NCBI RefSeq assembly: GCF_000143415.4
Contig: NW_003314364.1
Span: forward strand, 124,001-188,000
Origin: Selaginella moellendorffii
Lineage: Eukaryota; Plantae; Lycopodiophyta
DNA length: 64,000 nt
Direction: 5' to 3'
Part shown: one piece after another, positions 2,899-48,278 of the stretch
Layout: each line of letters opens with the position of its first letter
How positions within the stretch are numbered: position 1 is the first letter of the stretch
Translations under genes and position numbers: made by a program
The notes under the pieces: generated by a model
Told to the model about the DNA's origin: nothing
Database searches by the model: none
What the model saw: only the letters and a program-made list of their open reading frames with translations

Positions 2899-3895
2899 TG
2901 TGAGCGACTAATTTTTCCATTTTACTTTAGTCACTTAACCACACCTCCGACCACTTGGAGGAGTCTCATTCACAACCTCCACAAGTCCCAGTTAGGACTT
3001 GGGGCTTGCTAGCCCCGAGAATGGCATCCATACCACTCAACCTTTGCACTTGGTCTAAGTGCTCCACGTGTCCGATCCCATGATCGACACCCGAAGGTAT
3101 CACCGACATATCGGCCCGTTACGCTGAGGCCATACCTATTCACCTTGGTCACGCTGGTGGTCCAACACCACCTACATTGCAATCCTGTCTCTCATAGACT
3201 AGGCCATCCATCCATGAGGGATCATCCCAGATCCACTCCTTAGCATCCTTAGGATGCTCGCAGACTTAGGGAATAACCTTCCCCAATATCTCTTTTCCGG
3301 TCCCCACCAAGTCCCTCTTTGTCGATGGCCATGTTCACCAACACTGCCACTGGATCAAGGCCTGCAGGCCCGACCTCTAAGTCCAACTGTCCTCTGGGAC
3401 TTCCTCACTGGGTGACCGTGTCCTTTGTCACCACACCAGAGGGCTACTCCTCTTCCTTTCCACAACCTGGGACTTTGGGACCACATTTCGGAACACCGTG
3501 GCCTTACGCGAGCCACCTGGGTACTCTCCCCACCTTTTGCCTTTAGGTGCTCTAGCCATGGGCTTAGAGCGAGGTTCCATTGAGCCACGCCTGGTATCCA
3601 AGTAGGTAGTGCCACCCACACTTGGACTAGGAGCATCGGCCAGTCGATCTCCCAGGGGAACTAGAGCCGGCTCTTGAACACTTCACCAAGCTACCCCGCT
3701 TGTCGGTTCGTATTCACTCTAGTCTTGGACTTCCCAGTGGGCAGCTCATCACCCAACACTGGGTCTGGCCTTCCTGGGCCAAACTGGCCTTTCCTGGCCA
3801 AACTGGCTCCACTGCAGACCTCCCCCTACTATACTTTTGGAGCTCACCAAACCCCCCAGGGTCTGGGAGACGAACGCTTTGGGCTTTCACCCTCT

Positions 3896-4405
3896 CAGAC
3901 TCGAACTCGGACTCGAACTCGGACTCGGACTCGGACTCGGCCTCTGCCTCGGCCTCGGTCTCGGTCTCGGTCCCGATCTCGATCTCGGTCTCGGTCTCAG
4001 TCCCGATCTCGGTCTCGGTCTCGACTTCGGACTCCATCTCGGGTCCATCTCGGAGTCCATCTCGGGTCCCATCTCGGACTCCATCTCGGACTCCATCTCG
4101 GGTCCATCTCGGACTCCATCTCGGACTCCATCTCGGGTCCATCTCGGACTCCATCTCGGACTCCATCTCGGGTCCATCTCGGACTCCATCTCGGGTCCCA
4201 TCTCGGACTCCATCTCGGACTCCATCTCGAGTCCATCTCGGACTCCATCTCGGGTCCCATCTCGGACTCCATCTCGGACTCCATCTCAGGTCCATCTCGG
4301 ACTCCATCTCGGGTCCATCTCGGACTCCATCTCAAACTCCATCTCGGGTCCATCTCGGACTCCATCTCGGACTCCACTTCGGACTCCAACTCGAGTCCAT
4401 CTCGG
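3896..4405. repeat. Intra-LTR tandem array of 6-bp and 12-bp units (GACTCG / CTCGGACTCCAT)
   Basis: Directly visible periodicity; the same array recurs at ~15040-15520 and ~34180-34675. Confidence 0.95.
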
Positions 4406-4570
4406 ACCCTTCATCGTGTCTTGTGTTGGCCCTTTTTGGAGCCTCGCTTATTGCTCGCTTCGTGCTCGTTCCTCGAGCACTTTGTTGGGAGTTCCACTCC
4501 TGCTCTTGACTTTTCAAATCGGAGCTTTTGGTCCAAACGTGTTACCACTCCTTTGGCTCTCGCTTCGGCC

Positions 4571-4681
4571 NNNNNNNNNNNNNNNNNNNNNNNNNNNNNN
4601 NNNNNNNNNNNNNNNNNNNNNNNNNNNNNNNNNNNNNNNNNNNNNNNNNNNNNNNNNNNNNNNNNNNNNNNNNNNNNNNNN
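4571..4681. other. Assembly gap with duplicated (overlapping) flanks
   Basis: Run of N; ~4416-4570 is repeated at ~4683-4836. Confidence 0.9.
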
Positions 4682-4895
4682 ACGTGTCATGTGTTGGCCC
4701 TTTTTGGAGCCTCGCTTATTGCTCGCTTCGTGCTCGTTCCTCGAGCACTTTGTTGGGAGTTCCACTCCTGCTCTTGACTTTTCAAATCGGAGCTTTTGGT
4801 CCAAACGTGTTACACTCCTTTGGCTCTCGCTTCGGCCACTACCACGTGGCGCCCTTCCGGCTCCACTTTGGGGCCTAGGGATTTTGTGTCTCACA

Positions 4896-11209: not shown

Positions 11210-11316
11210 CTACGCTCACAGTGCTCACGTGGAACTGTCGGGGACTCAGCTCTGAGGACAGTAGACTCAACAAGAGAGTACAGCTCAAGTCCCACATCCG
11301 GGAGATTGGCTTAGAG
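11206..11316 (+). pseudogene. LINE ORF2 N-terminus (start of APE endonuclease)
   Basis: MTTLTVLTWNCRGL...IGLE; continues in frame at 26247 as GRIDILCIQEHK once the transposon and one AGAG are removed. Confidence 0.9.
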
Positions 11317-11340
11317 ATGCTCTATTTCGTTAAAGTGGGA
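11317..11340 (+). repeat. Left TIR ATGCTCTATTTCGTTAAAGTGGGA
   Basis: Inverted match (1 mismatch, position 2) to 26219-26242; the same end occurs at 52058-52081. Confidence 0.93.
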
Positions 11341-11976
11341 TTTATTCAGTAAAATGGGACTAGGTACAAATTTTCAAGTATTTGAAAATGACGTGAAATT
11401 ATATGTTTTTTGTCCAGGGGCTAGACATATCTGGGGCATGGTGACTAGCGCGGTGACTTTATGTCCAGACTGAGTCCATCTGGTTGTATAATAAATCTCA
11501 TTGTCAAGGTGAACAAGCCGAATCTGAAGCTAAAGAAGAGCGATGGCATGCACGCACACACTATTTGTTTGTTCATTGAGCATGTGGTGAGCTTTCCAAG
11601 ATGAACGTCATTCCTATTAGCCAGACATATAACTTAATGGTGAGAACATTTAGATATTATTCAATGTTATCTTTTTCTAACGAATCTAATTGTGAAGGTG
11701 TAGCAAGAGGCATTGCTAGTCTGGAGAAGTCATTTAACTCATTTGACCCTTAGTGTATTTTCATGAAACTAAATAACATTCATATTATTAAGGAATTTCT
11801 CTAGTACCTTTTTTTTACGACATAGAGGCTTGCATTTCTTTCAAAGGTGATTTAGTAAAAGGCCTAAGGGCACATGCCATTCTATTTCTCAGACCGGTAT
11901 TAAGATATACTAGTGCAAAGGGAAAAAGGTATTTGGTGATCAAGTAAATGGCATGAGGGCACACGCCATTATAAGG

Positions 11977-12336
11977 CTAAGCGCTAGTGGACACCTCCTT
12001 TTTGGTACTCTCAGCGGTACTATCATCCTTCTCCGGGTCAGTTGTTTTGCTTTGGATTGTTGTCTCTGACGTTACTGGGGCGTTCTCGATAGTTGTTAAT
12101 GTTGCCGTTTGTCCAGAAAAATGATCACCTGGAGTATAGTACGGGGAGTTTGGAAGATTTATATATTCTACATCTTCACCTATCTCCTTCTCCGTCTCCT
12201 TTTCTGCCTCACTTACAGATTTTGTGTTTGCCATGAGAACGCTCTTCACCCTAAAATATGGAGTTCGTTGTGTTATAAAAGGAAACCAACACACACGCTT
12301 CAAGGGAATGATGGTACATAAAGCACGTAAGCCCAC
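11977..12336 (-). other. Small acidic, Thr-rich ORF or exon downstream of the transposase, function unknown
   Basis: Open in both copies (51062-51421); no recognisable domain or clear ATG. Confidence 0.25.
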
Positions 12337-12674
12337 AATATGGGTTTATGTGCCATTAATATGGGCCACACGCCATATTATTAGATTTATGCACGTGTGA
12401 TTGGTAAATGCATATGTCACATCATCTTTGTTTTACCTCACACACTATATCAGGCCTAATGAACCATATCACATGTGCGCACATGCTATATATATGGAGA
12501 AGTATTATGCAAGGATAGAAATTCAATGCATGATTGTGGAGAGCAATGGCATGAAGCCACATGCTAAATAACATTTTAGAGAAAGATCTTGTTATTTGTT
12601 ATTTGTATTATCTCACTTAGGAATGGCGTAAGGCCACATGCCATCACGCCTCCTCTGATTCAGATTCGGATTGT

Positions 12675-15600
12675 TCACCTTGAAATAAAATACATTAGAA
12701 ACTTAGTAAAGGAATATTCATGAATCTCACCTTGAACCCGGGTTATGAATGCTCTTGCTGCATCTCTTGCATGGTCTGGCAAGGTGATGGTGGCACTCTG
12801 CTTCCGCATCCAACCATGCACAACATTATCCACCGATATGCTCATGCTGGGATCCCTTGGATTCAGCACCCATCTCTTTTCTAGGCAATCGTTCGTATAT
12901 CCGGAACTTGGCTTGAACCACTCCACAGTTACATTGAAGGAGTTAGTTTCCGCGTCCTCCTCTGCATCAGTGATGCAGCGCCCCACCCATATCATTTGTT
13001 TTTTATTACTGGGTCTGACAAGCACGACCATTCCTTTGCAGACCTGTACTGGATTGAATGCTGAATCCGGCTTCTTGTTCCTCGGCCCACAATAGTGATC
13101 CTCAACATCGTTATCTGTCACTGCATTTCCAGAGGACATTGTTCCGCTACTATCTAGTGCTCTGGGTTCTGGCCAAAAGGACTCTTCCAATTCTTCATAT
13201 ACAACCGGCCCATTTTGGATAGCAGATATAATCTTCTCCCAGTATTCGAGCAAAGGTTTGCACCTCTGAAAATAGGATTCTCCACCAAACACCAACCCCC
13301 TCTTCCAGAAGGCAATATGCTGTCTAATCCCGGCCACTATACTTTCCTGGTCTTTGAGTCCATCCGGGTGCATCGGCCGTGGGGAACCCTGAGGAATCAT
13401 AGGTTCCCCAGTTATGGGATCTCTCTTGAAGAGTTCAATGCCGTCCACTGGCAGCCACACTGTGTCCCATTCTCTCATCTTGTACCTCATCATTGGAGCA
13501 CCGTCACACATGCTGAAATGAAACTGAAGAGGCTTGGAGTGGCCAATCAGCGTTTCGGATCCGTCCCTGATGTAGCCTCTTACAAACCCCTTAAAGTCTG
13601 GAACCTCTGTCAAAAGTGCAGCTTCAACAGTGCCTTTGATGCAATTTTGGAATTGATCGTAGAGTTGTGGGAGGGTGAGGACATTGGATCGCCGGAGGGA
13701 CTCTGCCAGGTGACTGAACATGGCATCGACGTCTTCATGAGTGTGCCCAACCATGAGAAAGCCAAGTGTAACCGTTTCAAATATGCCTTTGGCAACAAGC
13801 ATCGCCAAGTACGCGAAGACGTACATGTTTTTGTTCTCACTGCCAGCATTGTCTGTTTGGAGCAGAAGATGGGGTGGAAGGCCACATCGGCCGCAAGAAC
13901 TTCCTTGAGATTCTGCTTCGTTTGGATGAGGCTGTGCATTCACCGGGCGACCAGCCTCGTCGGAATGGCATGAGGCCTCACGTGATAACCCTACAATCTG
14001 ACGGCCAACATATTCACTGGGATGGCATGGGGCCCCACGCGATACTGCAAGCCTTTGCTCCTCCTCCAGCTGAACCCTGTATGGGGTTCGATCGACAAGG
14101 GCCTTATGCAAGGGTTGGCCGTTCAGCTCAGTCTGCGCACTTTGCAGAGACCTTAAGTGTTTTGCTAGGGACGCAATCATCATGTTTGCACCCCCGCCAC
14201 CCCATAGAGGTACAAAGAAGTTCCCATAGTTCTGGGCACCATGCCCATGAGCGATTATGCCAAATAGAGACAGAGGCAGCTGCATGGATGAAGAGATTGC
14301 CTTGGGGGCAGGATTGAGTCGAGGTAAGCACGTCTTTTTCTGGTCCATTTTGTCGTGGATGATGCAGAGGTAAGAGTCAGGTCTCTCCATGGAGAGAATC
14401 CTGTTATGATAATATGCAGTCCTGCAGCTTCTCTGCTCGATGTTGTGGTCGAGCTGCCTTCTAACCAACGTCTCTCGCTCTTGAGCGCTACAAGAATTCT
14501 TCGACAAAGCCATTTTGATAGCAGTGCACTCGTCACACTTTGAAAAGTTGGAGTACTTTCCTATACTCACATCCCTGAACCTGTTGCTCCACAATCTACT
14601 AAATCTAGATTGGCTCAGCTTCCTGTAGCCATTACTCTGGAGTTCCCGATTCACATCTTCCAATATGGCCCCCTTGGTATACATGGAAGGGAGAACTCAT
14701 TGGGTGTCTCGTGTTCCATCTTCCAAGAGGCGGGTTTTATGTGGTTGCTGCTCGCTACATGTCTCAACAAACCTCTTGAAGATTGCCTCTCCATATACAA
14801 CATGACCCTGTGAGACACAAAATCCCTAGGCCCCAAAGTGGAGCCAGAAGGGCGCCACATGGTAGTGGCCGAAGCGAGAGCCAAACGAGCGTAACACGTT
14901 TGGACCAAAAGCTCCGACTTGAAAAGTCAAGAGCGGGAGTGGAACTCCCAACGAAGTGCTCGAGGAACGAGCACGAAGCGAGCAAAAGGCGAGGCTCCAA
15001 AAAGGGACCCAAAAGGACCAACACATGACACGTGGGAGTGTCCGAGATGGACTCGAGTTGGAGTCCGAAGTGGAGTCCGAGATGGACCCGAGTTGGAGTC
15101 CGAAGTGGAGTCCGAGATGGACCCGAGTTGGAGTCCGAAGTGGAGTCCGAGATGGACCCGAGTTGGAGTCCGAAGTGGAGTCCGAAGTGGAGTCCGAGAT
15201 GGACCCGAGTTGGAGTCCGAAGTGGAGTCCGAGATGGACCCGAGATGGACCCGAGATGGAGTCCGAGATGGAGTCCGAGGTGGACCCGAGATGGACCCGA
15301 AATGGAGTCCGAGATGGAGTCCGAGATGGACCCGAGATGGAGTCCGAGATGGAGTCCGAAGTCGAGACCGAGACCGAGACTGGGACCGAGACCGAGACCG
15401 AGACCGAGATCGGGACCGAGACCGAGGCCGAGGCTGAGACCGAGCCCGAGCCCGAGTCCGAGTCCGAATCCGAGTCCGAGTCCGAGTCCGAGTCCGAGTC
15501 CGAGTCCGAGTCCGAGTCCGGAGCCTGAGAGGGTGAAAGCCCAAAGCGTTCGTCTCCCAGACCCTGGGGGGTTTGGTGAGCTCCAAAAGTATAGTAGGGG

Positions 15601-17505
15601 GAGGACTGCAGTGGAGCCAGTTTGGCCAGGAAAGGCCAGTTTGGCCCAGGAAGGCCGGACCCAGTGTTGGGTGATGAGCTGCCCACTGGGAAGTCCAAGA
15701 CTAGAGTGAACACAGACCGACAAGCGGGGTAGCTTGGTGAAGTGTTCAAGAGCCGGCTCTAGTTCCCCCGGGAGATCGACTGGCCGATGCTCCCAGTCCA
15801 AGTGTGGGTGGCACTACCTACTTGGATACCTGGTGTGGCTCAACGGAACCCGCTCTAAGCCCATGGCTAGAGCACCTAAAGGCGAAAGGCGAGGAGAGTA
15901 CCCAGGTGGCTCGCGTAAGGCCACGGTGTTCTGAAATGTTGTCCCGAAGGCCCAGCCTGTGGAAAGGAAGAGGAACAGTCCTCTGGGGTAGTGACCAAGG
16001 ACACAGTCGTGTGGTGAGGAAGTCCCAGAGGACCGTGGGACTTAGTGGTCGGGCCTGTGGGTCTCGATCCAGTGGCAGTGTTGGCAAACACGGCCAGGGG
16101 CAGAAAGGGACTTAGTGGGAACTGACAGAGGGATATTGGGGAAGGTTATTCCCCTTGTCGGTGGGCATCCTAAGGATGCTAAGGAGTGGATCTGAGATGA
16201 CCACTCACGGATGGTTTGCCTAGTCTTGGAGAGCCAAGACGGTGATGCAAGTGGTATTGGACTACCAGTGTGGCAAAGGTGATTGGGCATGGCCTTAGCG
16301 TAACGGGCTGCTATGTCGGTGGTACCTTTGAGTGTTGGTCATGGGATCGGACACGTGGAGCACTTGGACCAAGTGCAAATGTTGAGTGGCATGGATGCCA
16401 TTCTCGGGGCTAGCAAGTCCCAAGTCCTGGATTGGACTTATGGAGGTTGTGAATGAGACTCCTCCAAGTGGTCAGAGGTGTGGTTAAGTGACTAAAGTAG
16501 AATGGAAAATTTAGTCCCTTACAGACCCCTGGTTTTGTGTGTACCGTCGTTCCCATGGACTGCCTGTTGAACCCTTTGTTCCTCGAACTCAGTTTTGATT
16601 CTATAGAATGTGGTTCGAGGGACTCCATAAATGATTCTCCATGCCTTCATGCAGACCAAACCCCTCTGGAAGACCATGCCCGCCACCTGATGTTCTGAAG
16701 CATGAACAGATGACCGTAATGCCTCATACACAAAATTGCGAGCTGCCTTCCAGGACAATGTCTTGTATCTTGCTCTCTCCTCTTCAATAGCATCCCAATC
16801 AGCATGTTGACAGCACCTCCTCTTGCAACAAGCAACTGTCGAGACCATTCGAACCTCCATCGCCATTTTCTGCCTTTTCGGTTCGTTGCTCAGATCCCTT
16901 TGGCTGCGCTTTAGGAAGGTGTACTTTCTTTTCCCATGAAGAGATGTTCTGTCATCAGTTGTAGTGGTGTTTGATTGTGAATCCTTCACATTCTCAAACA
17001 CTAAGTGCCTCAATTTCCACTGCACAATGCTTCCAATAGTCAGACTGTTTTCTTCTGTGTCAACAACCTCTAAAGTCGCAACTCCAATATCATCCCAGCC
17101 CAATTCTTGATTAGCAACCGCATCTCTTGGATCGACAACTGTGGCTAAGCCCTCAGCTACCACCTCCCCCTCGGGGTTGTTTAGAAACACCTTTGCCTGA
17201 ATCCATGTAGCACGGTTCTTAAGATCCACGGAGGGAACATGCGTCGCACTTGCGCTGTCCCCAACATCTGCTTTCTTCTGAAAATTTTTCAAGGCAACAA
17301 CAACATTTACCCCGACGACCATCTCTCCTCGTTCAATAGCGACCACATTCCCATCGAAGACAGTCTCTACTGATACAGCAGCATTGCCTTCCCCAAGCCT
17401 TTGACAGTGTATAACAAAGTTCCGATCCATAGACACAAGGGTCCCTTTTGCAACTCTCTTCCCACCATTCAAAATGTAAACCTTTTCCCCAACCCTGAAG
17501 GCCAT
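12675..17505 (-). pseudogene. Sola-like DDD transposase (~1036 aa reconstructed), split by a solo LTR and one TGA (14697-14699)
   Basis: Motifs CCKRRCC, SKCDEC, IIHDKMDQKKTCLP, LQTDNAGSENKN and FLMVGHTHEDVDAMFS. ORFs 16519-17505 and 12675-14684 join in frame (HKTRG|HVVYG) once the LTR and one TSD are removed. Confidence 0.85.
14809..16523 (+). mobile_element. Solo LTR, family 1 (1715 bp)
   Basis: TG...CA ends; 5-bp TSD GACCC at 14804-14808 and 16524-16528. Confidence 0.95.
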
Positions 17506-17870
17506 TCTGAAAGTGCAGAAAAGAAGTTAAGACTATACAAAAAATGATTGGAGAATGGCCTAAATCATAACATACCAAACAACCTCAATAGCATGAGGCC
17601 ACATGCCATTATTCAAACATGCTATTGACACCCACGTGAAATTTCGCATTCACAAAATTGGCATGAGCCCTCATGCCATCTTGATATACACACAGCTGCA
17701 GGCAAGCAAAAACATACATGACAATACGCTAGCCATGAAATTGCAAGGGCCCAAGATGGCATGTGGCCTCATGCCATTTCTAAATGTGGTCCTAAGCCAT
17801 TCCATGGTGAACATACCAGGAAGCACAAGTGCCGAATATCAAGAGGAAGCGGTAGCCACACCAAAGACAG

Positions 17871-18003
17871 TGCCGCTCGCAACACCGCAACTACTCGTAG
17901 CGCCGCTCGCAACACCGCAACTGCTCGTAGCGCCGCTTGCACAAACTGCCACTCGCATAAACTGTCGCTCGCAATAGCGCTCGCAATGCCGCAACCGCTC
18001 GTA
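17871..18003. repeat. CpG-rich ~30-bp tandem repeat upstream of the transposase
   Basis: GCCGCTCGCAACACCGCAACT(A/G)CTCGTAGC repeated; also present at ~47575-47705. Confidence 0.7.
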
Positions 18004-18800
18004 GACGCATAAACCACAGCTCACAACGCCGCTTACACAAGCAGCGCTCACTGCGCTCAGCGGAACCAAGAACACGGCGCACAAAAATGATAGACCTAGG
18101 AATGAGTTCGAGAATTCAAAAATAACACACGCTTGAACGTCACATCAAATCCTCTGACAAACCAGATCTTATGATTCCTCTGACAAATTTCAAACTAAGT
18201 AGCTTCTAGACTTTGCTGTCGGAGGTTGAACTTTGTCACATCATGTCCTTGCCTTGATCCAGCTGTGCCATGTCAGTGATTCGAACTTTGCCATGCTATG
18301 TCAGCGATCCGCACCAAGATTATTCGCCGTGTAAAGGAATAATTATGCTGTGTGTGTACGTCCATTTATGGCAATATAAGGCCACACGCCATTCAAAAAA
18401 TAATGCTAGTCGAGCATTTTTTGGTGCATTTTTGGGTTCAAATTTGCATGAGCCCACACGCTATAAAGTTTACCTGTACCAAAAATAGAAACAGCTTTAT
18501 TTACTTGGGAATTTAAGTGGTTGAGGCATTTTTAAACTTACAAACACATGCTCTACTTACATTCCTTTGGTTGTTTAAAATTCAAAAATATTATAAACCT
18601 TTCTTTTTGCATTTTCAATGTTTTCAATTATGGTTTTTGATTTTCGCAGGACCAGCCTAGTAATCTATTTGCATCCCGTCATGTTTATAGCTAGCTTTCG
18701 TTTGTCCCCTTCGCTAGCCTGAAATACATCTGCTCGGCATCTGCCTCTTACAGCATTTGCCCAGAAAGGGGATCTTTCTTCACGCAGCATTTGCCACATG

Positions 18801-18833
18801 TTTAGGGTTTAGGGTTTAGGGTTTAGGGTTTAG
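18801..18833 (+). repeat. Interstitial plant telomeric repeat (TTTAGGG)4+
   Basis: Directly visible; a shorter homologous tract is at 46759-46778. Confidence 0.9.
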
Positions 18834-20429
18834 CAATTCAGTAGCTTGATAAACATGCAAATATAGAACTTGATTCAAAATCCTTTGATATGTCACAATG
18901 CCCCTAGGACCATAAACACATTTCAATAGAGAGGGTCCTTTCATTTCATAACTCCTTACGTAGATCTTGGTGAAACCAGAGTTAGTGAAGTTAGTTTCTT
19001 GTGATCCCGTATCTGATTGTGATGTCCCTTTGCAATTTCGATGGAAAGGTCAATGCACACCAAATTGTAAAATCTTGGAGCAAAATAACGGTCGGATCTA
19101 TGGCAAATGCCCCTGAAATATTGTAAGGCTCGTGTGGTCTCATGTGGTGTCCGATCGAGATGCTTCTTTGCAGGGTCATCAAGAAAGACATTGTATACCA
19201 TTCTGTAAAATCTAGTTGCGATCTAACGGTTGGATCTCCAGAAAACTCAAAAAAATCTCGCGCGTGTCAGAATATCCTAGGAATATACTCCTATGTGCCC
19301 CTGAAAATGGCATGCGGCCCCACGCCATTCAAGAGATAACGCCAGATGACGCCGAGAATTTTTTGGTGCATTTTTTGGGTTCAAAATTGCATGAGCCCAC
19401 ACGCTATAAAGTTTATCTTTGCCAAATAGAGAAAAATTTATCTGTGTCATGTGAGGTAGTTACAGTCCTTTGTGCTCGGCATGTGCCTCTTGCAGCATTT
19501 GCACTGAAAGGGAATTTTTCTCCATTCAGCATTGGCCCTGAAAATGGCATGCGCCCACACGCCATTCAAGGAATAACGCCTCAGGACGCCTGGATTTTTG
19601 GGTTTAAAATGTTTAGGGTTTTTTGGGTTTTTTCAAAATATTTTGGGTCCAACGTTTTTTGGGTTTCTTTGGTTCAAAATTGCATGAGCCCACACGCTAT
19701 AATATTGATTTGAGAGAAAAATAGAAACAGATAGAATTTCTTTATTTAGCTGAACATCTGCCATTTTTGGAAATACAAGATGCTTTGGAATATCCAATCA
19801 TGCATGGTATAAATATAGCGAGGGTATTAAATGATATCCCAATCATGATCTTTCTTTTGGATTTCGCGTGTATGCAGTCCGAGGAATGATGATGTTGCGG
19901 ATTTCTTTTGGATTTTGCGTGCTTGCATGCGCGCGGCAATCCAGAAATTAATGGTGGCGCCCAAGTCCGAGGAATGATGACGTGGCGGGATTACCAACCG
20001 TTGTGACATTTCGTGCGTGTGAGGTTAGGTTTTGCATTTTTCTTTGTACTCGCACTCGCACACTCGCGCTCGCGCTCGCATCACACTCGCGCTCCCGCTC
20101 GCATCGCGCTCCCACTCGCGATCACGCTCACTTCTCTACAGGTTTCTCGTGTGCATCGGCGTCCACTCGCGCTTGCATCACACTCGCGCTCGCATCACGC
20201 TCGTGTGCATCGGCGTCCACTTCAAGACACACCCAGTTTGTAACTTCGCCGCCAACTCCGCCGCCCACTCCGCCACCCACACGCAGCCCACTTGGCATCC
20301 CGGGAGATTTCAGCACCACTCTCCAACTGTAAGTGGTAGAGTAGCCTTGCTGCTACGATCCGCTGCACACACAGTGCACATTCGCCAGCGAGTCCAGCCT
20401 CGATTGTCACGGCCTCCATTCGGCTTCAA

Positions 20430-23400
20430 ATGGTAAGTCTTTTAGGCCAAGTAGAAAATGGCATGAGGCCACATGCCATTCAGTAGCAACATTGGCATGC
20501 ACCAATTGGGCTCTCGAGTGCAGTCCGGTTACAGATGGCGTGTAGCCTCACGCCATCTTAGGATGCAGCCTCAAGACATCTGATGCAGTGGTGAATGGCG
20601 TGTGGCCTCACGTTATTTCCAGCTGCTAGCTTTTCATCTGTCAGCTCTAATTGTTGTGCATTTCTGAACAGGCGAGGAATTGCGTTCTTCTTCCAGCCAC
20701 TGTCAATGTGGATGCAGAGAAGGGGGAGGAGCTCACCAGTTGGACTTTCGGGATGGAAGGCGAGGATCTGATGCTGTACAACACAGATGGTGGGAGAAAA
20801 GAATGCATGGGGATCCTCATCCAAGTGACAGACACTCCATGCAGTTCCATGCAAGAATATGGACTGGCACTTGTGGTAGAGACAGCGTCCGCCTTCAAGA
20901 TCCATCTTGCACATCCTAGCGGCTTCCCGGAGGGGGGCAGCGGCTATGAGGAATTCCTAGAGGGAGCTAGGGAAAGGTTGTCCAGGAGGCCCACAATTTC
21001 AAAGACGCTGCGGGTCTATGAAGATCACATGGAATCCACGGACCTCACCTACGGCGATGTTCAAAAACTATATTCCAACATTGAGCCGTTGAGAGTGCCT
21101 CCAGGTTGCGAAGCGAAGGGGAAGGGGGTCGATCTGGAAACTACCCCGAAGTAAAAAAGGGTGGTCAAGCTCAAGCCGACGTCCGACTCTGCTGCTCCAA
21201 AAAAGAAGCTACTCGGTGATGCCATTGCCTCGGGTTCGAACACTACACCCACCAAAAAGAAGAGCCGCAAAGAGCAGAAAGAGCAAGAAGAGGCAGCAAA
21301 AATCGTCGCAGATAATAGTACTTGTTACTATTCCAACAAAGTATATACAATCGACGTGAGCCGTATCGAGATCCAAAGCAAATACAACCACAGGCTAGTA
21401 TCTGATGAGTGGGTGGAGAAACTGAAGCAGAAGATGCTGGCAAGTCCAGTAACACCCGACATCGCAGACGTGATCCCCTACTACCGAGGAGGTAAAGAAA
21501 GTCTTCAAGACAAGAGTTGTCCGCCTGATAAAAGGCAACTCGCCCCTCCAATCTATCATATACATCTCCCACGCGCAGAATGTCAAGCAAGAAACGTGCT
21601 ACAAATCGGGTCTGCACGAGACATTGGCACGAACACGAAAGCTCTGGGTTCAACTGAAGAAGCCACAAAAACCAGGACAAGGACGTGCACTAGCAACTAG
21701 CGCCTGGCAGGTAAGCCTCGTTGCATGTAGCATAGCATGTGGCCTCACGCCATTTCCATTGCAGGAATTCTCGAGTCTTCTCTCGAAAACACTGGGGGTC
21801 AATGACACACTCAGCATCCATAACATTCTACTCGCGACAAAAGTTGTTATTGACAAATGGGTAGATGTGCTGAGGAGGTACCATGACGGGGAGTTGCTAA
21901 ACTCAATGGGTGTGGAGGACGGCCGGAAGCCCAATGATTTGAAGCTCAACGCCTTGCGTTTCTCGCGGTCTCCAGACGACGACGACCTTCTGACAGTGGC
22001 TAATGCTCTTCTACGTGGTGAGGTAGTCTTCAACAAGACCAAAATGACTCCCGGCCATATTGTGACATACGAGGACTTGTGCACGACTCTGAGAGCTCGT
22101 GCGCTATTGAAGGATTGGATCTTCGAGCAAGTGGCCGTTGCGAGGGTGAGCATCGACATCACGCAAGAGATGATGGAAGAGCTGGAGTTGTCAAATGAAG
22201 ACATCGACGAGTACGTGAAGGGGGCCCCCAAGTTCATCGATCTGCTGCGGGATGCCACGAAAAGTAAAGCTGAGAAGTTGGATCAGTATCCAAATTTCAT
22301 TAAGAGGGATGTCGACCGCCAGCTTCAGAAACAGCTCGACCCCGCAGCAGAGGCCTATCGAGAACCTTACCGGGTATACGTGAATTCGGATGAGGATCAA
22401 AGGTGGAGGAGCATCGTTTCCCGCGGAGATGAGCAGGTCAAGAATATCTTTTGTGTGATGGACTTCACAAACGAGGAGATCACTCATGCAGACGAAGTCA
22501 GCTCCATCATTGACTTAATGGTGGGACTTGCGGAGGTGGAATCTTCAGTCCACTATATGATCTATGACTCCGAATCCTATCACAAGTTCTGGAAGGCCTT
22601 GAACGAGGTGAAGGCTCGGTTGAAAGGCAAGGAGATGCGGGAGATCCATGGGATAATGGCTAAGAAGAAGATACCGACGAATGTCCGCATCTTCACACTC
22701 GCCCTTGTTATTGGTCCTGCAGCAGAGTGGGACTGGAGTGACTTCCCAGCTTCGTTCAACAAAGCCGATCGAATTGATCTGAGGGAGGTCAATTTACCCA
22801 TGCCTGAGGAACTGAAGACGGCTATGGAGCTTTCGAATCCAAAGAAAGCTCCAGGTGCAGCATGGGAAATGCTCAGCTGGGTCTTCAACGCAATAGCAGG
22901 TGACTCCAAGGGCAAATGCGTTGTCGAGTACAACTGCGGCGGACTATTCTTTCAAGCCGCACTACTCAAGGGTGTCCCGTGTGTTGCGGTGACAAACTCC
23001 ATTGAAGAGGTGACTTCAATGGAGCATATAATTACAGTTGCCAAAGAAAAACAGTATCTTCTCTACGAACCTGGTGAGTACGCACTTTAAGTTTAAATGT
23101 TATCTCACAAGCTCTGTATGCAGGAGCGTGGCCACCCCCAGATGCTGAAACGGCGTTAACAGCTACTGATGTTAGGCCGAGCTCACAACCTGCACAAGGT
23201 AAGGTCACGTGAGGCCTCACGCCATTTTGATTATAGATCGTTGTGAATATTCAGACACGAGGACTGAAAAGCGCACTGGTGGCGCGTCGAAGAAGGACAA
23301 ACAGACAAGCAATAGGAAAAAAGGAGGTACAAATTATATTTGCAATGGCGTGTGGTCTCATGCCATTCCTTGCAGGAGACACTTCTTCAAAGGCAAAACA

Positions 23401-25898
23401 GGCAAGCACCAGCCAAGCTCAAACTGACAGTGGTCATAAAAAGCGAAAGCACGTTGGACAGTCGTCGGGATCAGAGGCGTTTGATTCGAAAAGGAAGAAG
23501 GGCAACGAAAAGATGATAGGTAATGCCTCGCGGTTATGGCGTGTGTGCTCATGCCATTCATTGCAGATCAAGGGCTGAGTGAAAGGAGCCAGTCACCACC
23601 TTCTGACTCAGATTCCTATGGCGGACTCCCCTTCCCCAATCTCAATGGAGAGGTACAATGGATGAGGGATGCTTTTCAAGTCAGGGCCACGTTTTTCTCA
23701 TCTCATCGTCTTCGAAGGGTGCAAGAACGTGCAGAAACCATATTAAGACAGTCGGGTGAGGATACGGTCCTAGGTCACGCACTAAAACAGGCTATGGATG
23801 TCTTGTATTTTGAGATGGAGACTCGGCCAGATGATTTTCCCAAGATGGTCCTGGAAAAACAAGCCATCCAGCCTGAGCAGCCTATGGAAGAAATGTAGGA
23901 GGGGGATGAGGAGCCAGAGAAAGATAATGAGCAGGAAGAGCAGAAGGACGAAGAGGAGGACAAAGAAGAGGAGGACGAAGAAGAGGAGGATGAAGAAGAG
24001 GAGGACGAAGAGGACTTGGATGGTCCTCACAATGGTGACGATCACAATAACGACGATGACGATGATGACGACGATGGCCAGCCTGAGGTGGCCAAAGAGC
24101 AGCGGAGGAAGGTCATACAAGACAAACCATCAGGTAAATAATAGTACATCCATTCCTAACCTTTTACCATTTCTAACATTGTCCATGTAGGTCGCAGAAG
24201 AAATGGTAAGTAGAGATTATTCAGTTGAATTAAGATACAAACTCTAGCCTTTAGTGTCGAGGAAGGATAGTGCCAAGTAAGGGTCGAAACGTATGTCCAA
24301 TCCTTCAGAATCAGCAGTGCGCCCAAGTGATATCGGTCCTAGTTCCTCAATAGCAGTTGATGGTAAATACAGTATAGTCGATTCAATGTGCTAATGAGTT
24401 TGTTTTTAGTAGCACGGGAGGATACCATCTCAATCGAAGGGAGATATTTGGACATGCATATGGATCCGCCAGTGGACTCTACTTGCCTGCAAGAGTCATC
24501 AGAGCTGGTGGAGGCTACTATCCATATCAACGCCAAGCAAGCTGACCATGCTCCACTTGATGCTGCCCATACCACTGAGTCAATCTTGTCCACGTATCCA
24601 ACTGACGGTGACCAGGCGCTATTGGACCCGCATGAGGCCGCCCCAGCCGCCGAGCCGGTCGTATCCTCATTTCCAACGTGTGCCCAATCGTCTGACTACG
24701 CGCCGTTGGAACCTCCCTACACCGCCCCTGCTGCCTGTTTGGTCATGTCCACTTTGCCAACGGAGGCACCAGCTGAAATGGCGTGTGATCACACGCCATC
24801 GGAACCACCCCATGCCACTGTTGAGCCAGTTGTACCAGAGTCTACAGCTGAAATGATGCGTGCCCACACGCCATCGGATGCGTGCCCACACGCCATATTG
24901 CAGAGGAGAGTATTTCCGCCCTTCACGTTTCCTCGACCAAAACCCTCTGAACGACCATCGGGAGCACCATTCGCTAATATTGTAGATGGTAAAATTGACT
25001 TGTACCATTTTTTATGCTAACGCATTTCATTTTAGAGTCACGGCGAAAGTACTGTATCGTTTTTGATCTGAATGGTGTCCTTTTCTCCCATGAGCATGGC
25101 TCGTCCTCGAATGTCACTGCACCCTCCAAAGCCTGCGGTCGCAAGTTGGTCAAAAGAGACAGATTCACATTAATCACACGGGAGAAACTGCGGGATCTAA
25201 TAATGACCATGCGACACTTAAAACAGAGGGCCGGGTTCAATTTGCAATTGGGAGTTTGGACATCCATGATGCGCCACAATGCATTAACGTTGCTACAGAT
25301 GATGCACGATCAGACGCGAGTAATATTACCATTTGACTTTCTCCTAACGCAGGAGGATTGCTTGACTATGGTCCATGTGAGGGGTAGCAAGACCATCTTC
25401 ATCAAGCCAGAGGCTGTAGTGATGAACCGGACTGCTAGGTCAAGTGAAATCCTCATCATCGATGACTCGCCGATTAAAACTGCAGCGAACACGCACACAT
25501 ATGCAGTGCACCCCATCTCTTGCAGTATGGAAACTAGGGAGAAGAAACCGTATGTTCTTGGGGACCTTGCAAAACGGCTTGAAGCGATGGTGATAGAGAA
25601 CCGGCCAGTCCAGGAGGTGGCTGCAGAAATCAACCAAATGGCAGATGGAACGGTATATCAGAAGCCATTTGATTGGACAGACACCAGTCATCATTTATGG
25701 CATGTATATTGTCTAGCCAAGCACTATCCGCATCTCCATAATCTGCTCAACCGGATGGGTTCTTCGACCACTGAACATGAGCGTGGACGTATTAGAGAAG
25801 AGATGGCATTACTATTGGGTTTAAATCCTGATAGTGTGGAGAGTGATGAAATTCCAAGATTATTGTATAGGCGTTGGAGGCAAAAAATAACAGTCTGA
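20430..25898 (+). pseudogene. Transposon cargo gene, multi-exon: ParB/Srx-like + degenerate N6/N4-MTase-like + acidic linker + FCP1/NIF-like HAD domain
   Basis: ATG at 20430, then GT-AG introns 20433-20671, 21711-21764, 23074-23123, 23199-23254, 23327-23375, 23520-23566, 24134-24190 and 24989-25035 keep the frame; the 24200-24410 link is uncertain. Stops at 21152 and 23896 are CAG in copy 3. A 140-bp deletion lies at ~21487. Confidence 0.7.
25036..25898 (+). CDS. Terminal exon encoding an FCP1/NIF-like HAD-fold domain
   Basis: IVFDLNGVL (motif I), LGVWTSMM (motif II), IFIK and ILIIDDSPIK (motif IV) occur in the right order. Confidence 0.75.
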
Positions 25899-26218
25899 GA
25901 TGGCATGTATTTATTTAAAAATGTAACTTATTATGGCATGGGGTTCCATGCCAAGGGGAAAGTAAAGATTGAATGGGGACTTGGGCTCCACCTAGACTCG
26001 GAGCAACTGAGCCAATATTAAAAGGATGGAAAGAAATTGGACGACGATGACAAGGAGAAGAGAGAGGTGAAGCAGTGGCAGGGGGAGGAGAAGTGATTAA
26101 GTAGACATTTCCTTGTTTAAAATAAAATGGCATGTGCCTCAATGCAGTTGAATTTTGTTATATTTATATACTATATAAAGGTTTGGAAACCTTATTTTAC
26201 AAGTGGGATAATGACAAT

Positions 26219-26242
26219 TCCCACTTTAACGAAATAGAGCTT
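26219..26242 (-). repeat. Right TIR (reads AAGCTCTATTTCGTTAAAGTGGGA on the minus strand)
   Basis: The same end occurs at 42897-42920 and 56987-57010. Confidence 0.93.
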
Positions 26243-26246
26243 AGAG

Positions 26247-29922: not shown

Positions 29923-30059
29923 TCTCACTTTAGATGAGGGAGATCACCACTAGGTAGCATGAGCTTCAGGCAGCATGCCCAGTTTTTGTATTAGTCTCTA
30001 TGGGACATTGGGGAATGTACATACACGTTTCATCGAACTTCTTCTATGGGTGGTGGAGT

Positions 30060-31219
30060 TGTAAGGAACCAATCGCCGAGGTGTCGTAGGCTAAAAGAGC
30101 CCCGAAAGCTTGACCAAAATGATAAAGAGTTCATTGGAGGGGACCAAGTCTAAGATCGAGTCCAAGACCGACTCTAAGACCGAGTTCGAGATAGAGTCCG
30201 GAATCAAGTCCAAGACCGACTCGGAGACCGAGTTTGAGACCGAGTTCAAGACCAAGCTCAAGACGGAGTCCGAGATCTGAAATCGGGTCCGAGACTGAGT
30301 CCGAGGTCGAGTCCGAGGTCGGGTCTGAGATCGGGTCCGAGATCGAGTCCGAGATCGAGTCCGAGACCGAATCCGAAGTCGGATCCGAGATCGAGTCCGA
30401 GATCGAGCCAGAGACTAAGTCCGAGTACTAATACAGGTCAAGGGGTGAAAGCCCAAAGTGTGCGTCTCCCAGGGGGGGCGGGGGCTGCAAGGGGTTCCAA
30501 ATGTATAGTAGGGATAGTGAGGTCCAGGAACCAGTCTTGAAGGAACTCTCTAGTGGTGCTTCCAAATTGACTTGAGGTTGAGACTGGGGCCGAGGGGCCT
30601 TGGGTGGGAGTGAGTATGGGCTTGGGTGGTGCCGGAGGGGCCACCCAGGGAAGTGTTCAAGAGCAGCTCCCACTCCCGAAAGGGAAACCGACTGCAGTGC
30701 TCCCGGCTCATGTGGAGTGGTGCCCCACTTGAGTACCTTGCGGCTCATTGGTCCTCGCCCTTCCTAGGGGCTTGGGCCTTCCCTTCGGGATGGAAGTGGG
30801 GGGGTAGAGGTACCCATACCGGGCCGTTAGGCCACGGTGTTTCGCCCCGATGTCCCGAAGCAAGTGCTGCACCCAAGGCTTGGGATTTAGAGGGTCCCAT
30901 GATCAAGTCTTGTTGTACCAAGGGGTGTTAGGAACCTGGAGGCTTGGTGTGCTTGGCTGCTTGTACCTGCGGAGAGTGTAGCCGAACCTTAAGTCCAGTC
31001 TAACCCAGGGAGGGGGATTGGGAGAGATTTGGGAATCCGTAGATGGATGGTTAACACTCCGTTGCTCGTGCAGTGAGTAGATGAAACCAACTAGGACCAA
31101 GTAGGAGCTGGTACAATAGGCAAGAACCTTGGCAAGGGAACTTAGCACAAGCCAAGGTAGTGTTGGTCGGACAGACGAGGTAAGCTGGCAAATTGGAAAG
31201 GAAAAATTTGTGGCTTACA
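30060..31219 (+). mobile_element. 3' LTR, family 2, preceded by a PPT (30046-30059)
   Basis: TG...CA ends; inverted homologue at 40517-41684; contains a GAGTCCGAGATC array. Confidence 0.88.
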
Positions 31220-31221
31220 GT

Positions 31222-33167: not shown

Positions 33168-34883
33168 TGTAAGCGACTAATTTTTCCATTCTACTTTAGT
33201 CACTTAACCACACCTCCGACCATTTGGAGGAGTCTCATTCACAACCTCCATAAGTCCAATTCAGGACTTGGGACTTGCTAGCCCCGAGAATGGCATCTAT
33301 GCCACTCAACATTTGCACTTGGTCCAAGTGCTCCACGTGTCCAATCCCATGACCGACACTCAAAGGTACCACCGACATAGCAGCCTGTTACGCTAAGGCC
33401 ATGCCCAATCACCTTTGCCACACTGGTAGTCCAATACCACTTGCATCATAGTCTTGGCTCTCCAAGACTAGGCAATCCATCCGTGAGTGGTCATATCAGA
33501 TCCACTCCTTAGCATCCTTAGGATGCCCATCGACAAGGGGGATAGCCTTCCCCAATATCCGTATGTCAGTCTCCACTAAGTCCCTTTCTGCCCCTGGCCG
33601 TGTTTGCCAACACTGCCACTGGATCGAGGCCCACAGGCCCGACCACTAAGTCCCACGGTCCTCTGGGACTTCCTCACCACACGACTGTGTCCTTGGTCAC
33701 TACCCCAGAGGACTGCTCCTCTTCCTTTCCACAGTCTGGGCCTTTGGGACAACATTTCGGAACACCGTGGCCTTACGCGAGCCACCTGGGTACTCTCCCT
33801 GCCTTCCGCCCTTGGGTGCTCTAGCCATGGGCTTAGAGCGAGGTTCTGTTGAGCCACGCCTGGTATCCAAGTAGGTAGTGCCACCCACACTTGGACTGGG
33901 AGCATCGGCCAGTCGATCTCCCGAGGGAACTAGAGCCGGCTCTTGAACACTTCACCAAGCTACCCCGCTTGTCGGTCCGTGTTCACTCTAGTCTTGGACT
34001 TCCCAGTGGTCAGCTCATCACCCAACACTGGGTCTGGCCTTCCTGGGCCAAACTGGCTCCACTGGGCTCCAACCCCCACACTCTCCCCCTACTATACTTT
34101 TGGAACCCCCTGCAGCCCCCCCCCCCCCTGGGGGACGATCGCTTTGGGCTTTCACCCAACTGCCTGTATTAGTATTCGGATCGGACTCAGACTCGGACTC
34201 GAACTCAGTCTCGGTCCCGGATTCGGACCGGACTCGGTCTCGGTCTCGGTCCCGGTCTCGGTTCCATCTCGGACTCCATCTCGGATTCCATCTCGGGTCC
34301 ATCTCGGACTCCATCTCGGGTCCATCTTGGACTCCATCTCGGGTCCATCTCGGACTCCATCTCGGACTCCCTATCGGACTCCACTTCAGGTCCATGTCGG
34401 ACTCCATCTCGGACTCCATATCGGACTCCACTTTGGGTCCATCTCGGACTCCACTTTGGGTCCATCTCGGACTCCATCTCGGACTCCATATCGGACTCCA
34501 CTTCGGGTCCATCTCGGACTCCATCTCAGACTCCATATCGGACTCCACTTCAGGTCCATCTCGGACTCCATATTGGACTCCATCTCGGACTCCACTTTGG
34601 ACTCCATATCGGACTCCACTTCGGGTCCATCTCGGACTCCATCTCGGACTCCATATCGGACTCCACTTTGGGTCCATTTTGGGTCCCTTTTTGGAGCCTT
34701 GCTTATTGGTTGCCTCGTGCTTGCTCCTCGAGCACTTTGTTGGGAGTTCCACTCTCGCTCTCGACCTTCCAAGTCGGAGCTTTTAGTCCAAACGTGTTAT
34801 GCTCGTTTGGCTTTCGCTTCGGCCACTACCACGTGGCACCCTTTCCGGCTCCACTTTGGGGCCTAGGGATTTTGTGTCTCACA
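33168..34883 (-). mobile_element. Solo LTR, family 1 (1716 bp)
   Basis: TG...CA ends; 5-bp TSD GTGGA at 33163-33167 and 34884-34888. Confidence 0.95.
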
Positions 34884-34888
34884 GTGGA

Positions 34889-39700: not shown

Positions 39701-40516
39701 CACTTCGTGTGCATGGTGAAATCTTTAGTCATGGGGTAGCTACTATCGATTGGTCACATAACCCACCTTTCTGTCAATATTCCTTATTTTATTCAAAGGG
39801 CGTGACCGTGTAAACAACTCTAACTACCTGTTTACAATAGTTTATTTAAACCTTACCGATGGGTTTGGTTTCTTTGCTCAAGAGGGTTGGGGCCTCTAGC
39901 TTCTCTCTCTATGTCCCTGCAAGCAAGGGCATATCACACTTTTGTAAGCTGGGTGACAACTAGAGCAGCAAGGGTGGCTGACTCTATTAGTCATTTCCTT
40001 GTCGGCGACGGCCGGAAGGTGTTTGAGTTGGTAGCGCATCCACATTAGACCAAGAGGTTGCCTCCTAACTCATTTAAATCAGTGCATTTCTCATATAGTG
40101 TGATCACCGTGAACTTTTTCTAGAGTTGTTTCCTTAGTGGTGGTCTAGACAGGAGTATGCATCGACGAGGATGTCAATCTTCCCTAAGGGGGGGAGAGTG
40201 TCGTGAATGTGATTTCGGGTATCGAAAGTTACCTATCGGATAGTCCTTACAGACACTCTTTCCTTACTACCACGATGGCAAGAAGTTGGTATTATTGGGC
40301 CTGTTATCAGTTCCCACTTGAGGTAATTGAGAAACTGATCAATAACTGTGCACTTAAATTGGATAAACATAAGGCCCTTTGTGTTTCTTGCCGAGCATAC
40401 TCGGCCTGGTTTGAGAAACTCCTGTCATTGGCTTGCACTTGCTAGTATCAAGAACCCCCATGAGATTGGTCCCTCAATATTCGCAAGATGATAACTTACC
40501 GTGTTTGCCAAACACC

Positions 40517-41684
40517 TGTAAGCCACAAATTTTTTCCTTTCCAATTTGCTAGCTTACCTCGTCTATTCGTCCGACACTGCCTTGGCTTTTGCTAAGTTCT
40601 CTCACCAATGTTCTCGCCTATGGTACCAACTCCTACTTGGTCCTACTTGGTTTCAGCTACTCACTACACGAGCAACGGAGCGTTAGCCATCCATCCACGG
40701 ATTCCTAATCTCTCCCAATCCCCCTCCCCGGGTTAGACTGGACTTAAGGTTCGGCTACACTCCCCGCAAGCACAAGCAGCCAAGCACACCAAGCTTCCAG
40801 GTTTCTAACATCCCTTGGTACCACAAGACTTGATCATAGGACCCTCTAAATCCCAAGTCTTGAGTGCAACACTTGCTTCGGGACGCCGGGGCAAAACACC
40901 GTGGCCTAGTGGCCCGGTATGGGTACCTCTACCCCCCCCCCCCCCCCCACTTCTATCCCGAAGGAAGGCCCAAACCCCTAGGAAGGGCGAGGACCAATGA
41001 GCCGCATGGTACTCAAGTGGGGCACCACTCCACATGAGCCGGGAGCACTGCAATCGGTTTCCCTTTCGGGAGTGGGAGCTGCTCTTGAGCACTTCCTTGG
41101 ATGGCCCCTCCGGCACCAACCAAGTCCATGCTCACTCCCACCCAAGGCCCCTCGGTCCCAGTCCCAACCTCAAGTCAGTTTGGGAGCCCCACTGGAGAGT
41201 CCCTTCTAAACTGGTTCCTGGACCTCACTATCCCTACTATACTTTTGGAACCCCCTGCAGCCCCCCCCCCCTGGGAGACGCACGCTTTGGGCTTTCACCC
41301 CTTGACCCGTATTAGTATTTGGACTTAGTCTCTAGCTCGATCTCAGACCCGATTTCGGATCCGACTTCGGATTCGGTTTCGAACTCGATCTCGGACTCGA
41401 TCTCGGACCCGATCTCGGACCCGACCTCGGACTCGACCTCGGACTCGGTCTCGGACCCGATTTCGGATCTCGGACTCCGTCTCGAACTCAGTCTCGAACT
41501 CGGACTCGAACTCGGTCCCCGAGTCGGTCTCGGACTCGATTCCGGACTCTATCTCGAACTCGGTCTCCAAGTCAGTCTTGGACTCGATCTTCGACTTAGT
41601 CCCATCCGATGAACTCTTTATCATTTTGGTCATGCTTTCGTGGTTCCTTTAGCCTACGACACCTCGGCGAGTTGGTTCCTTACA
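40517..41684 (-). mobile_element. 3' LTR, family 2, with PPT at 41685-41698
   Basis: TG...CA ends; homologous to 30060-31219; lies downstream of the chromodomain on the minus strand. Confidence 0.9.
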
Positions 41685-48090: not shown

Positions 48091-48278
48091 TAGTGGTACC
48101 ACTAATGGCATGAGGGCTCATGCCAATTTTGTGAATGCGAAATTTCATGTGGGTGTCAATAGCATGTTTGAATAATGGCATGTGGCCTCATGCTATTGAG
48201 GTTGTTTGGTATGTTATGATTTAGGCCATTCTCCAATCATTTTTTGTATGGTCTTAACTTCTTTTCTGCACTTTCAGA

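Follow-up and report, generated by a model that had tools for sequence, protein, structure and literature searches.

A palindrome dispersed through a Sola-like transposon of Selaginella moellendorffii is a candidate binding site for the element's accessory protein

Introduction

The genome of Selaginella moellendorffii contains a transposon through which a 22-bp palindrome is scattered, and the question raised by this locus is what reads the palindrome and to what end. We analysed a 64,000-nt stretch (NCBI RefSeq assembly GCF_000143415.4, contig NW_003314364.1, positions 124,001 to 188,000 of the forward strand), referred to below as the window, in whose numbering all coordinates are given. 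The host is a cut-and-paste DNA transposon of roughly 14 kb, Sola-like, with two divergent genes that encode a transposase and an accessory protein. Self-comparison of the window revealed three copies (A, B, and C) at 95-99% identity. In our best explanation, the palindrome would be the binding site for a dimer of the accessory protein and would serve self-recognition resembling that of the VANC system of Arabidopsis; we give this reading a probability of roughly 0.55.

The palindrome is confined to the element

The unit is 22 bp long, with the consensus ATGGCRTG WGGCCW CAYGCCAT. A half-site scan of the window detected 19 perfect sites; allowing one mismatch raised the number to 37, and the spacer was 6 nt in all of them. 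None of the other spacers from 0 to 14 yielded a site with fewer than two mismatches; the 32 matches at spacer 11, each with two or three mismatches, are probably shifted readings of the same sites. The three copies and the terminal inverted repeats (TIRs) are as follows, with strands given where assigned (TSD, target-site duplication).

11317-26242: copy A, 14,926 nt including a nested solo long terminal repeat (LTR); ends common to B and C; 4-bp TSD at 11313-11316 and 26243-26246
11319-11340, plus strand: left TIR, 22 bp, unrelated to the palindrome
26219-26240, minus strand: right TIR, 22 bp
42897-52081, minus strand: copy B, internally deleted, with its own 4-bp TSD, within a Gypsy integrase frame; 19 sites
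56987-64000, minus strand: copy C, extending past the window end; 14 sites; retains the possible ParB-like region and five extra motif-bearing introns

When up to three mismatches were allowed, copy A held 27 sites in 13,207 nt (nested LTR excluded), copy B 19 in 9,185 nt, and copy C 14 in 7,014 nt, as against a single site in the 34,684 nt outside the element; dinucleotide shuffles of copy A (n = 100) gave a mean of 0.26. A profile scan of the window at a score of at least 8 found 67 sites in the element and 0 outside. This confinement to the element counts for self-recognition by the accessory protein. The first-pass annotation of this DNA, which noticed the palindrome, had suggested comparing its density inside and outside the family, and within the window the enrichment is borne out (27 sites per 13.2 kb in copy A, 1 per 34.7 kb outside). 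All 15 of the positions that it had called good and the 11 that it had called degenerate carry the motif, 19387 being really 19386, and further weak copies lie at 12468, 18371, and 24875. It was also right that the palindrome is unrelated to the TIR, since the ends carry their own different 22-bp repeat, and that it is not subterminal, the sites being spread over 14.6 kb.

Three trivial origins were rejected: a remnant of a larger miniature inverted-repeat transposable element, because the flanks of the sites are unrelated; a tandem-repeat artefact, because no array covers the sites except at 24855-24896; and an ordinary subterminal repeat, because the sites are dispersed.

Conservation was profiled over 32 non-redundant sites, 27 from copy A plus five (at most four mismatches) from a stretch absent in A. 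Information is high at positions 1, 2, 4, 5, 7, 8, and 10 and their mirrors, low at 3, 9, and 11, and drops to background directly outside the 22 bp. The palindrome had been described as two conserved 8-bp arms around a spacer of fixed length and variable sequence. The fixed length stands; the spacer sequence proved partly conserved, with G in 30/32 sites at position 10 and C in 28/32 at position 13 (1.65 bits, on par with arm positions), and within the arms positions 3/20 are loose (0.56 bits). This pair is matched in 14/32 sites, always as G-C, and mismatched in 16/32, with no compensatory changes. On the sense strand (n = 32), 14 sites have G-T and two have A-C at the R/Y pair, and 14 have T-T at the pair 9/14; we infer that the R/Y variation is compatible with CpG decay. 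Only 5 of 351 site pairs share at least 30 of 60 flanking letters; most sites therefore do not derive from some larger repeat. The fixed sequence and length, the unrelated flanks, and the uncompensated positions 3/20 suit the reading of a DNA sequence rather than a stem. The earlier interpretation as a dimeric binding site is therefore consistent with the fixed sequence, sharp edges, unrelated flanks, and lack of compensation, once its simple variable-spacer model is given up. That annotation did not mention the placement in introns, the accessory gene as the likely binder, or copies B and C.

The three copies did not show the expected excess conservation in the arms, which changed at 18 of 424 positions (8 of the 18 from one shifted site counted twice), compared with 2/162 in the spacer, 26/1,501 in the flanks, and 233/12,056 in the rest. 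This comparison between three young copies has low power. The lack of an arm excess is expected for decaying copies, yet it gives no support.

Sites lie largely in predicted introns

The positions of the sites in copy A, together with the predicted introns that contain them, are listed below (UTR, untranslated region).

11543-12644: six sites (11543, 11859, 11948, 12468, 12546, 12623) in non-coding sequence at the 3' side of the transposase gene (intron or UTR)
13965-14043: two sites (13965, 14022) in the open transposase frame, in a variable insert of the catalytic core
17507-17816, minus strand: predicted 5'-UTR intron of the transposase gene, with sites 17588, 17658, and 17756 and a four-mismatch site at 17784; GT/AG ends, ATG two bases past the acceptor
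18371-19700: six sites (18371, 18443, 19307, 19386, 19544, 19679) between the divergent genes, five of them by local duplication (flanks shared)
20433-20671, plus strand: predicted first intron of the accessory gene, with sites 20458, 20535, and 20595; ATG followed by GT, and AG followed by an open frame
21732-23557: four sites (21732, 23204, 23345, 23536), each in its own predicted 47-56-nt GT-AG intron
24778-24896: three sites (24778, 24853, 24875) in an open frame, the low-complexity linker exon of the accessory gene
25933-26148: two sites (25933, 26127) 3' of the accessory gene

Each gene thus has three sites in its predicted first intron, with six sites intergenic, eight 3' of the genes, and five in open frames. 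Ten of the 16 accessory-gene sites fall wholly within a predicted GT-AG intron of 45-56 nt that scores at least 8.7 on a generic splice-site score; as background for such placement, 8% of 740 positions score at least 8. One of the ten, 20458, is more likely part of the longer first intron, judging by the reading frame. Copy C retains a 694-bp stretch that A has lost, which adds five more predicted short introns with one site each. Most sites are predicted to lie in introns. Contigs of four runs were compared with 19700-23900; those of the one run guessed to be RNA, which may be DNA, span the predicted introns unspliced.

Of nine large indels between the copies, four have a breakpoint no more than 1 nt away from a palindrome (12631, 25953, 44929, 48105), and the sites cover 5-6% of the DNA (binomial P about 0.01, calculated by hand). 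Three large indels break at or near predicted splice junctions, one of them being among these four. One of these indels is a double fold-back in copy B.

47899-48126: triple site in copy B, the counterpart of 17658, consisting of three sites joined by two fold-backs, 206 bp longer than in A

The predicted DNA folding energy of this double fold-back is about -105 kcal/mol over 235 nt. It is possibly a route of site gain, or else an ancestral structure lost from copy A.

The accessory gene encodes a predicted methyltransferase fold and an FCP1-like domain

The candidate reader of the palindrome is the product of the accessory gene, which lies inside the TIRs on the strand opposite to the transposase, as do the algal ParB-methyltransferase accessory genes.

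20430-25898, plus strand: accessory gene, divergent from the transposase, with many short predicted introns
about 22362-23084, plus strand: amino-methyltransferase fold, predicted from a low-confidence model
about 25050-25496, plus strand: FCP1/NIF-like phosphatase domain in the last exon (PF03031, E 3.5e-6)

The product appears to consist, in order, of a possible ParB-like N-terminal part, a helical part, the amino-methyltransferase fold, a low-complexity linker, and the FCP1/NIF-like domain. Copy A alone has an in-frame stop at 21152-21154, where copy C and the four sequencing runs searched all have a sense codon. The largest exon matched two credible homologue clusters among 1.84 billion representatives, one of them from S. 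moellendorffii, and two of the four representative matches (P0063, P0066) were dropped as repeat-driven. A search for longer homologues of the protein found none.

The protein is predicted to carry an N4C/N6A methyltransferase fold. In structural comparison of model residues 199-439, beta-class N6A/N4C DNA methyltransferases were in the top 11 of 48,161 chains, and CcrM aligned with Z 10.9 and a root-mean-square deviation of 4.5 over 187 residues. In the Atlas, the model of a Selaginella homologue groups with N6_N4_Mtase proteins, several of which are fused to ParB_N (TM 0.36-0.41 by query). At the sequence level, the accessory-gene pieces gave no Pfam match to a methyltransferase domain, and sequence searches of the PDB, PHROGs, and phage with these pieces returned nothing significant. 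A model built from the single sequence had a predicted local distance difference test (pLDDT) score of 33.8.

Active beta-class amino-methyltransferases bear the catalytic motif (D/N/S)PP(Y/F/W). This motif is absent from the exon in the window and none is visible in the homologues, in which only an aspartate is invariant; the accessory methyltransferase would therefore be a pseudo-enzyme. The N-terminus is possibly ParB-like, by analogy and by a short GQH motif found in the N-terminal region of both the window protein and a related locus (L032), which we take as a hint of a ParB/Srx-type domain. None of the accessory-gene pieces matched the VANC-associated families. Four S. moellendorffii proteins annotated as hypothetical (P0064, P0067-P0069) are homologous to the accessory protein and have a methyltransferase-like fold; their genes may belong to transposons that went unrecognised, or may be domesticated copies.

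Related transposases are accompanied by other palindromes

Relatives were represented by 80 metagenome loci (659 kb in total) with transposases 25-51% identical in the best segment. The window's own motif occurs in them once at one mismatch and seven times at three. In a de novo search, 17 of 43 non-redundant loci had a palindrome family (at least three copies) close to the transposase, versus 0 of 43 shuffles, some of the 17 being simple or tandem repeats. Among the 22 loci with far flanks, palindrome families were found 12 times near the transposase versus twice far from it. The repeats of L079 and L006 were set aside, since they probably belong to other elements.

An AT-rich clade, sister to the clade with the Ceratodon proteins, has a 22-bp palindrome of approximately AYRYYTRG TGGCCA CYARRYRT, with the same central hexamer and other arms. 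We counted 244 matches in 43 of the 80 loci versus 1.2 in shuffles; 77 lie at -3 to -2 kb and 64 at +2 to +3 kb, with none in the first kilobase of the catalytic core and none past +6 kb. A single clade of 36 takes in 32 of the 33 labelled rows. The shared right end is about 85 bp past the last site, which indicates that the sites of this clade are internal. The profiles of the window family and of the AT-rich clade do not cross-match. Two of the closest relatives (L001 and L002, 38-39%) carry yet other palindromes of their own, located upstream of the transposase start. Related families maintain different, lineage-specific palindromes.

Two loci contain decayed homologues of the accessory gene, situated between or beside palindrome clusters: L032 (profile E 0.004) and, found from L032, L071 (E 1e-6 to 6e-16). 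Remnant and transposase share a strand in both loci. A tblastn search of the 80 loci with accessory-gene pieces gave nothing at E 0.01, and L032 came only from the profile search. An automatic search for a TIR plus TSD in the relatives found no TSD-flanked pairs.

Some further features of these loci were observed. Upstream of the transposase, the palindrome of the AT-rich clade also forms tandem arrays with a period of about 46 bp (L024:4477-5060, L068:7085-7740, L070:7156-8130, L075:7381-8090). Telomere-type boxes adjoin palindromes in L036, L061, and L068. A distant DUF7869 relative (L072:79-9757), with a 452-bp terminal inverted repeat, is apparently a complete 9.7-kb element.

Possible readers of the palindrome

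In the explanation that we favour, a dimer of the accessory protein would bind the family-specific internal palindrome, and the bound protein would label copies of the element as self and probably maintain their expression in the face of host silencing. The absence of the usual catalytic motif suggests that the protein would work through binding or recruitment and not through methylation, and the FCP1-like domain is a possible effector. The sites would have been kept by selection through the history of each family and would have gathered where they bring no coding cost, namely in both first introns, short introns, intergenic DNA, and 3' regions; some would have been gained by local duplication. 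The motif is family-specific and enriched in non-coding parts of the element, as would be looked for in a VANC-type system. Besides the confinement and the form of the motif, points in favour are the placement of ten of the 16 accessory-gene sites in short predicted introns, the methyltransferase-like match of the protein model, the separate palindrome of the AT-rich clade, the accessory-gene remnants at palindrome clusters in L032 and L071, and the published parallels described below.

Several results weigh against this explanation. As noted above, the arms change no less than the rest of the element between copies A, B, and C. The alignment of seven sequences behind the accessory-protein model gave a poor structure (pLDDT 45.9), for which the best Foldseek E value was 5.9e-3, and the ParB-like N-terminus received no significant support in six tests (Pfam, PDB, phage, profile). 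The ParB-like-region piece of L032 aligns with that of the window no better than do shuffles, 420 of 1,000 being as good. Accessory-gene remnants were found in only two of the 80 loci; none was detected in L052/L053 between TIR-like ends 9.9 kb apart, and L002 has about nine palindromes of its own with the second gene absent from the 1.9 kb of contig upstream. The profile of the relatives was seeded from 17 of the sites that it counts, and eight of the loci are near-duplicates.

The transposase itself might bind the palindrome through its N-terminal domains for self-activation or synapsis, the second gene being a passenger. This is the strongest of the alternatives, though still unlikely in our estimate. 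It would account for the palindromes of L001 and L002 just upstream of the transposase start, where the second gene was not found, but those contigs stop close upstream, and a second gene there is possible. The sites of the AT-rich clade flank the transposase gene down to the last one near the right end, and the N-terminus has a weak PF03017 match; the ends of the element, however, bear their own, different repeat. Transposases can be sequence-specific activators, but in the preprint cited (bioRxiv 2026.08.24.746577) their effects are limited to the termini, whereas here the sites run through the body of the second gene. Alternatively, a host transcription factor could bind the core, with the element having gathered its sites. 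The GC-rich central hexamer common to the window family and the AT-rich clade and the telomere-like boxes adjoining some sites in relatives would fit such a reader, for example a factor of the TCP kind, to judge by resemblance. The 22 bp of lineage-specific sequence nevertheless exceed what such factors read, the two profiles do not cross-match, and the profile scan at a score of at least 8 found no site in the window outside the element; we regard a host factor as the least probable reader of all.

Two further possibilities dispense with a DNA-binding protein, and we consider both equally improbable, scarcely more plausible than a host factor. Plant introns have a T/G skew. If the motif were an RNA hairpin tuning the splicing of short introns in the pre-mRNA, its frequent position within predicted introns and the sense-strand bias (G-T over A-C, and T-T at 9/14) would be understandable, but the general skew also fits the bias. 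Moreover, the sequence itself is fixed and not merely its pairing, half of the sites are mismatched at 3/20 without compensation, the offset from the donor varies from 5 to 25 nt, and many sites are intergenic or coding. The sites might instead be by-products, devoid of selected function, of a palindrome that breaks easily and multiplies through fold-back repair and duplication. The site tripled by fold-backs in copy B, the four of nine large indels that break within 1 nt of a site, and the lack of excess conservation among young copies agree with this. It is opposed by conservation that ends sharply at 22 bp between unrelated flanks, which needs long-term selection on the motif, and by distant families, in which length, centre, and placement have stayed the same.

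Binding by the accessory protein can be extended to a bolder scheme, which we hold to be rather improbable, less so than the two non-binding possibilities. It would amount to a parS-like system in a land-plant Sola element, in which a dead bacterial methyltransferase joined to ParB-like and FCP1-like parts reads a private palindrome. Fold-back and duplication at the bound palindromes would spread the sites, new sites in the accessory gene would survive as 50-nt introns, and the motif would thus drive intron gain.

Comparison with known systems

In bacterial ParB/parS, repeated inverted sites are read by a dimeric protein encoded nearby; here there is no ParA, the element is a eukaryotic transposon, and the ParB-like domain is only a candidate.

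The closest counterpart is Sola1-1_Ec32 of Ectocarpus, a giant Sola of 21.5 kb with a 4-bp TSD and a 282-bp TIR (PMC12477816). Its accessory gene, on the opposite strand, encodes ParB-like and N4C/N6A methyltransferase domains and is proposed to bind and modify the element's own sequence (PMC12477816). The two elements share the 4-bp TSD, an opposite-strand accessory gene of methyltransferase type (by predicted fold here), and probably the Sola class, the ParB-like part being a candidate here. They differ in that the alga is brown and its TIR longer, whereas the Selaginella element has a methyltransferase without the catalytic motif and an added FCP1-like domain. A term search of the main text and five supplement files of PMC12477816 found no palindromic internal motif for Sola1-1_Ec32. 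In Bostrychia, Plavaka PAG2/PAG3 include a methylase-type accessory gene and a ParB-like protein whose proposed targets are inverted repeats of the transposon that encodes it (bioRxiv 10.1101/2025.02.11.637652). Unlike the present element, Plavaka belongs to the EnSpm superfamily, its repeats are tandem arrays by one gene and not dispersed in introns, and its ParB-like domain is fused to an oxygenase.

For the VANDAL/VANC system of Arabidopsis, binding and demethylation are proven, and family-specific motifs are located in introns, intergenic DNA, and terminal non-coding regions (PMC5735166). The likeness lies in a short family-specific motif in the non-coding parts of a multi-gene DNA transposon, with motifs that differ among related families. 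VANDALs differ in belonging to the Mutator superfamily, in having non-palindromic 8-9-bp motifs in tandem repeats, and in that VANC is not methyltransferase-like. By analogy, the Selaginella element may work like VANC without being a member, given its DUF7869-type transposase and the lack of a match between its accessory-gene pieces and any VANC-associated family. Spm TnpA and the AtMu1 transposase are sequence-specific activators whose motifs and effects are terminal (bioRxiv 10.64898/2026.08.24.746577); they resemble the proposed system in having clustered family-specific motifs read by an element-encoded protein, and differ in that their motifs are terminal and non-palindromic. Mobile elements with inactive methyltransferase domains and algal methylases linked to ParB are on record (PMC4738411), as are an active bacterial-type N4-methylcytosine enzyme in Marchantia (bioRxiv 2021.02.12.428880) and Sola elements in Physcomitrella, which are rare in plants (PMC9033089, PMC12973397).

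The design is thus already proposed in algae, by Sola1-1_Ec32 and the red-algal Plavaka. What appears to be new is the land-plant host, a young and testable family, dispersal in short introns, an FCP1-like tail on a methyltransferase fold without the catalytic motif, and different palindromes in relatives. Our literature search brought up no internal palindromic motif for any Sola element; one could be described in subscription papers, Repbase reports, or bioRxiv supplements. Proof that a transposon system recognises and protects its own sequence exists in only a few cases, and for the ParB-methyltransferase accessory proteins of algae such a role is still a hypothesis. The young high-copy family described here offers a candidate target, a candidate reader, and relatives with other motifs, making specificity and co-evolution directly testable. 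If our explanation is true, land-plant members of the Sola superfamily join the systems with sequence-specific self-recognition, their reader being bacterial in origin, and a compact module of site plus protein becomes available for epigenome work. The pattern of one site per intron bears on intron gain.

The host transposon and its surroundings

12675-17505, minus strand: transposase gene, Sola-like with a DUF7869 core, split in copy A by the solo LTR
14809-16522: solo LTR with TG..CA ends and a 5-bp TSD, nested in the transposase gene and free of palindromes

The transposase core matched PF25273 (DUF7869, E 4.6e-42) with invariant acidic motifs, and intact homologues are about 1,060 residues long (37-39% identity). 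We take DUF7869 to be the Sola-type transposase domain; the probable assignment as Sola-like is based on this match and the acidic motifs. The PF03017 (Tnp1/En/Spm-like) match at the N-terminus is weak (E 0.022) and under the curated cut-off, and an Atlas search with a transposase N-terminus gave no usable match. Named homologues of the element's proteins come from Selaginella, Ceratodon, and Riccia; with the plant telomere-type repeat and the very short introns, they point to a land-plant host, probably outside the seed plants.

Copies A and B have distinct 4-bp TSDs, and the host frames resume across the insertion sites. Copy A was inserted at the start of a long interspersed nuclear element (LINE) endonuclease reading frame, with PF03372 directly after the right end. 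A TIR with a 4-bp TSD, as present here, is typical of Sola1; the TSDs seen, AGAG and GATG from two insertions only, depart from the AWWT target preference described for Sola1 (PMC3845634), and Sola1-1_Ec32 is likewise entered with a target bias other than AWWT (PMC12477816). The family is high-copy, one DNA run giving 19,778 contigs over the 4.2 kb of 19700-23900. This region is also covered by a run labelled as a different organism, 56 of whose 112 records are at least 99% identical, which may reflect close kinship, mislabelling, or horizontal transfer.

Between the divergent genes, at about 18.8 kb in copy A and 46.8 kb in copy B, there is a short run of plant telomere-type repeat. At 54096-56990, 1.4 kb of the Gypsy element is duplicated in inverted orientation (95% alike); the duplication ends exactly at the right end of copy C and may record alternative transposition. 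LTR-type repeats with long 12-bp tandem arrays occur at 2899-4895, 14809-16522, and 33168-34884, and at 30031-31220 and 40516-41713. The segment 35198-39900 of the window is AT-rich and strand-skewed, has a 740-bp direct duplication, and contains no long open reading frame.

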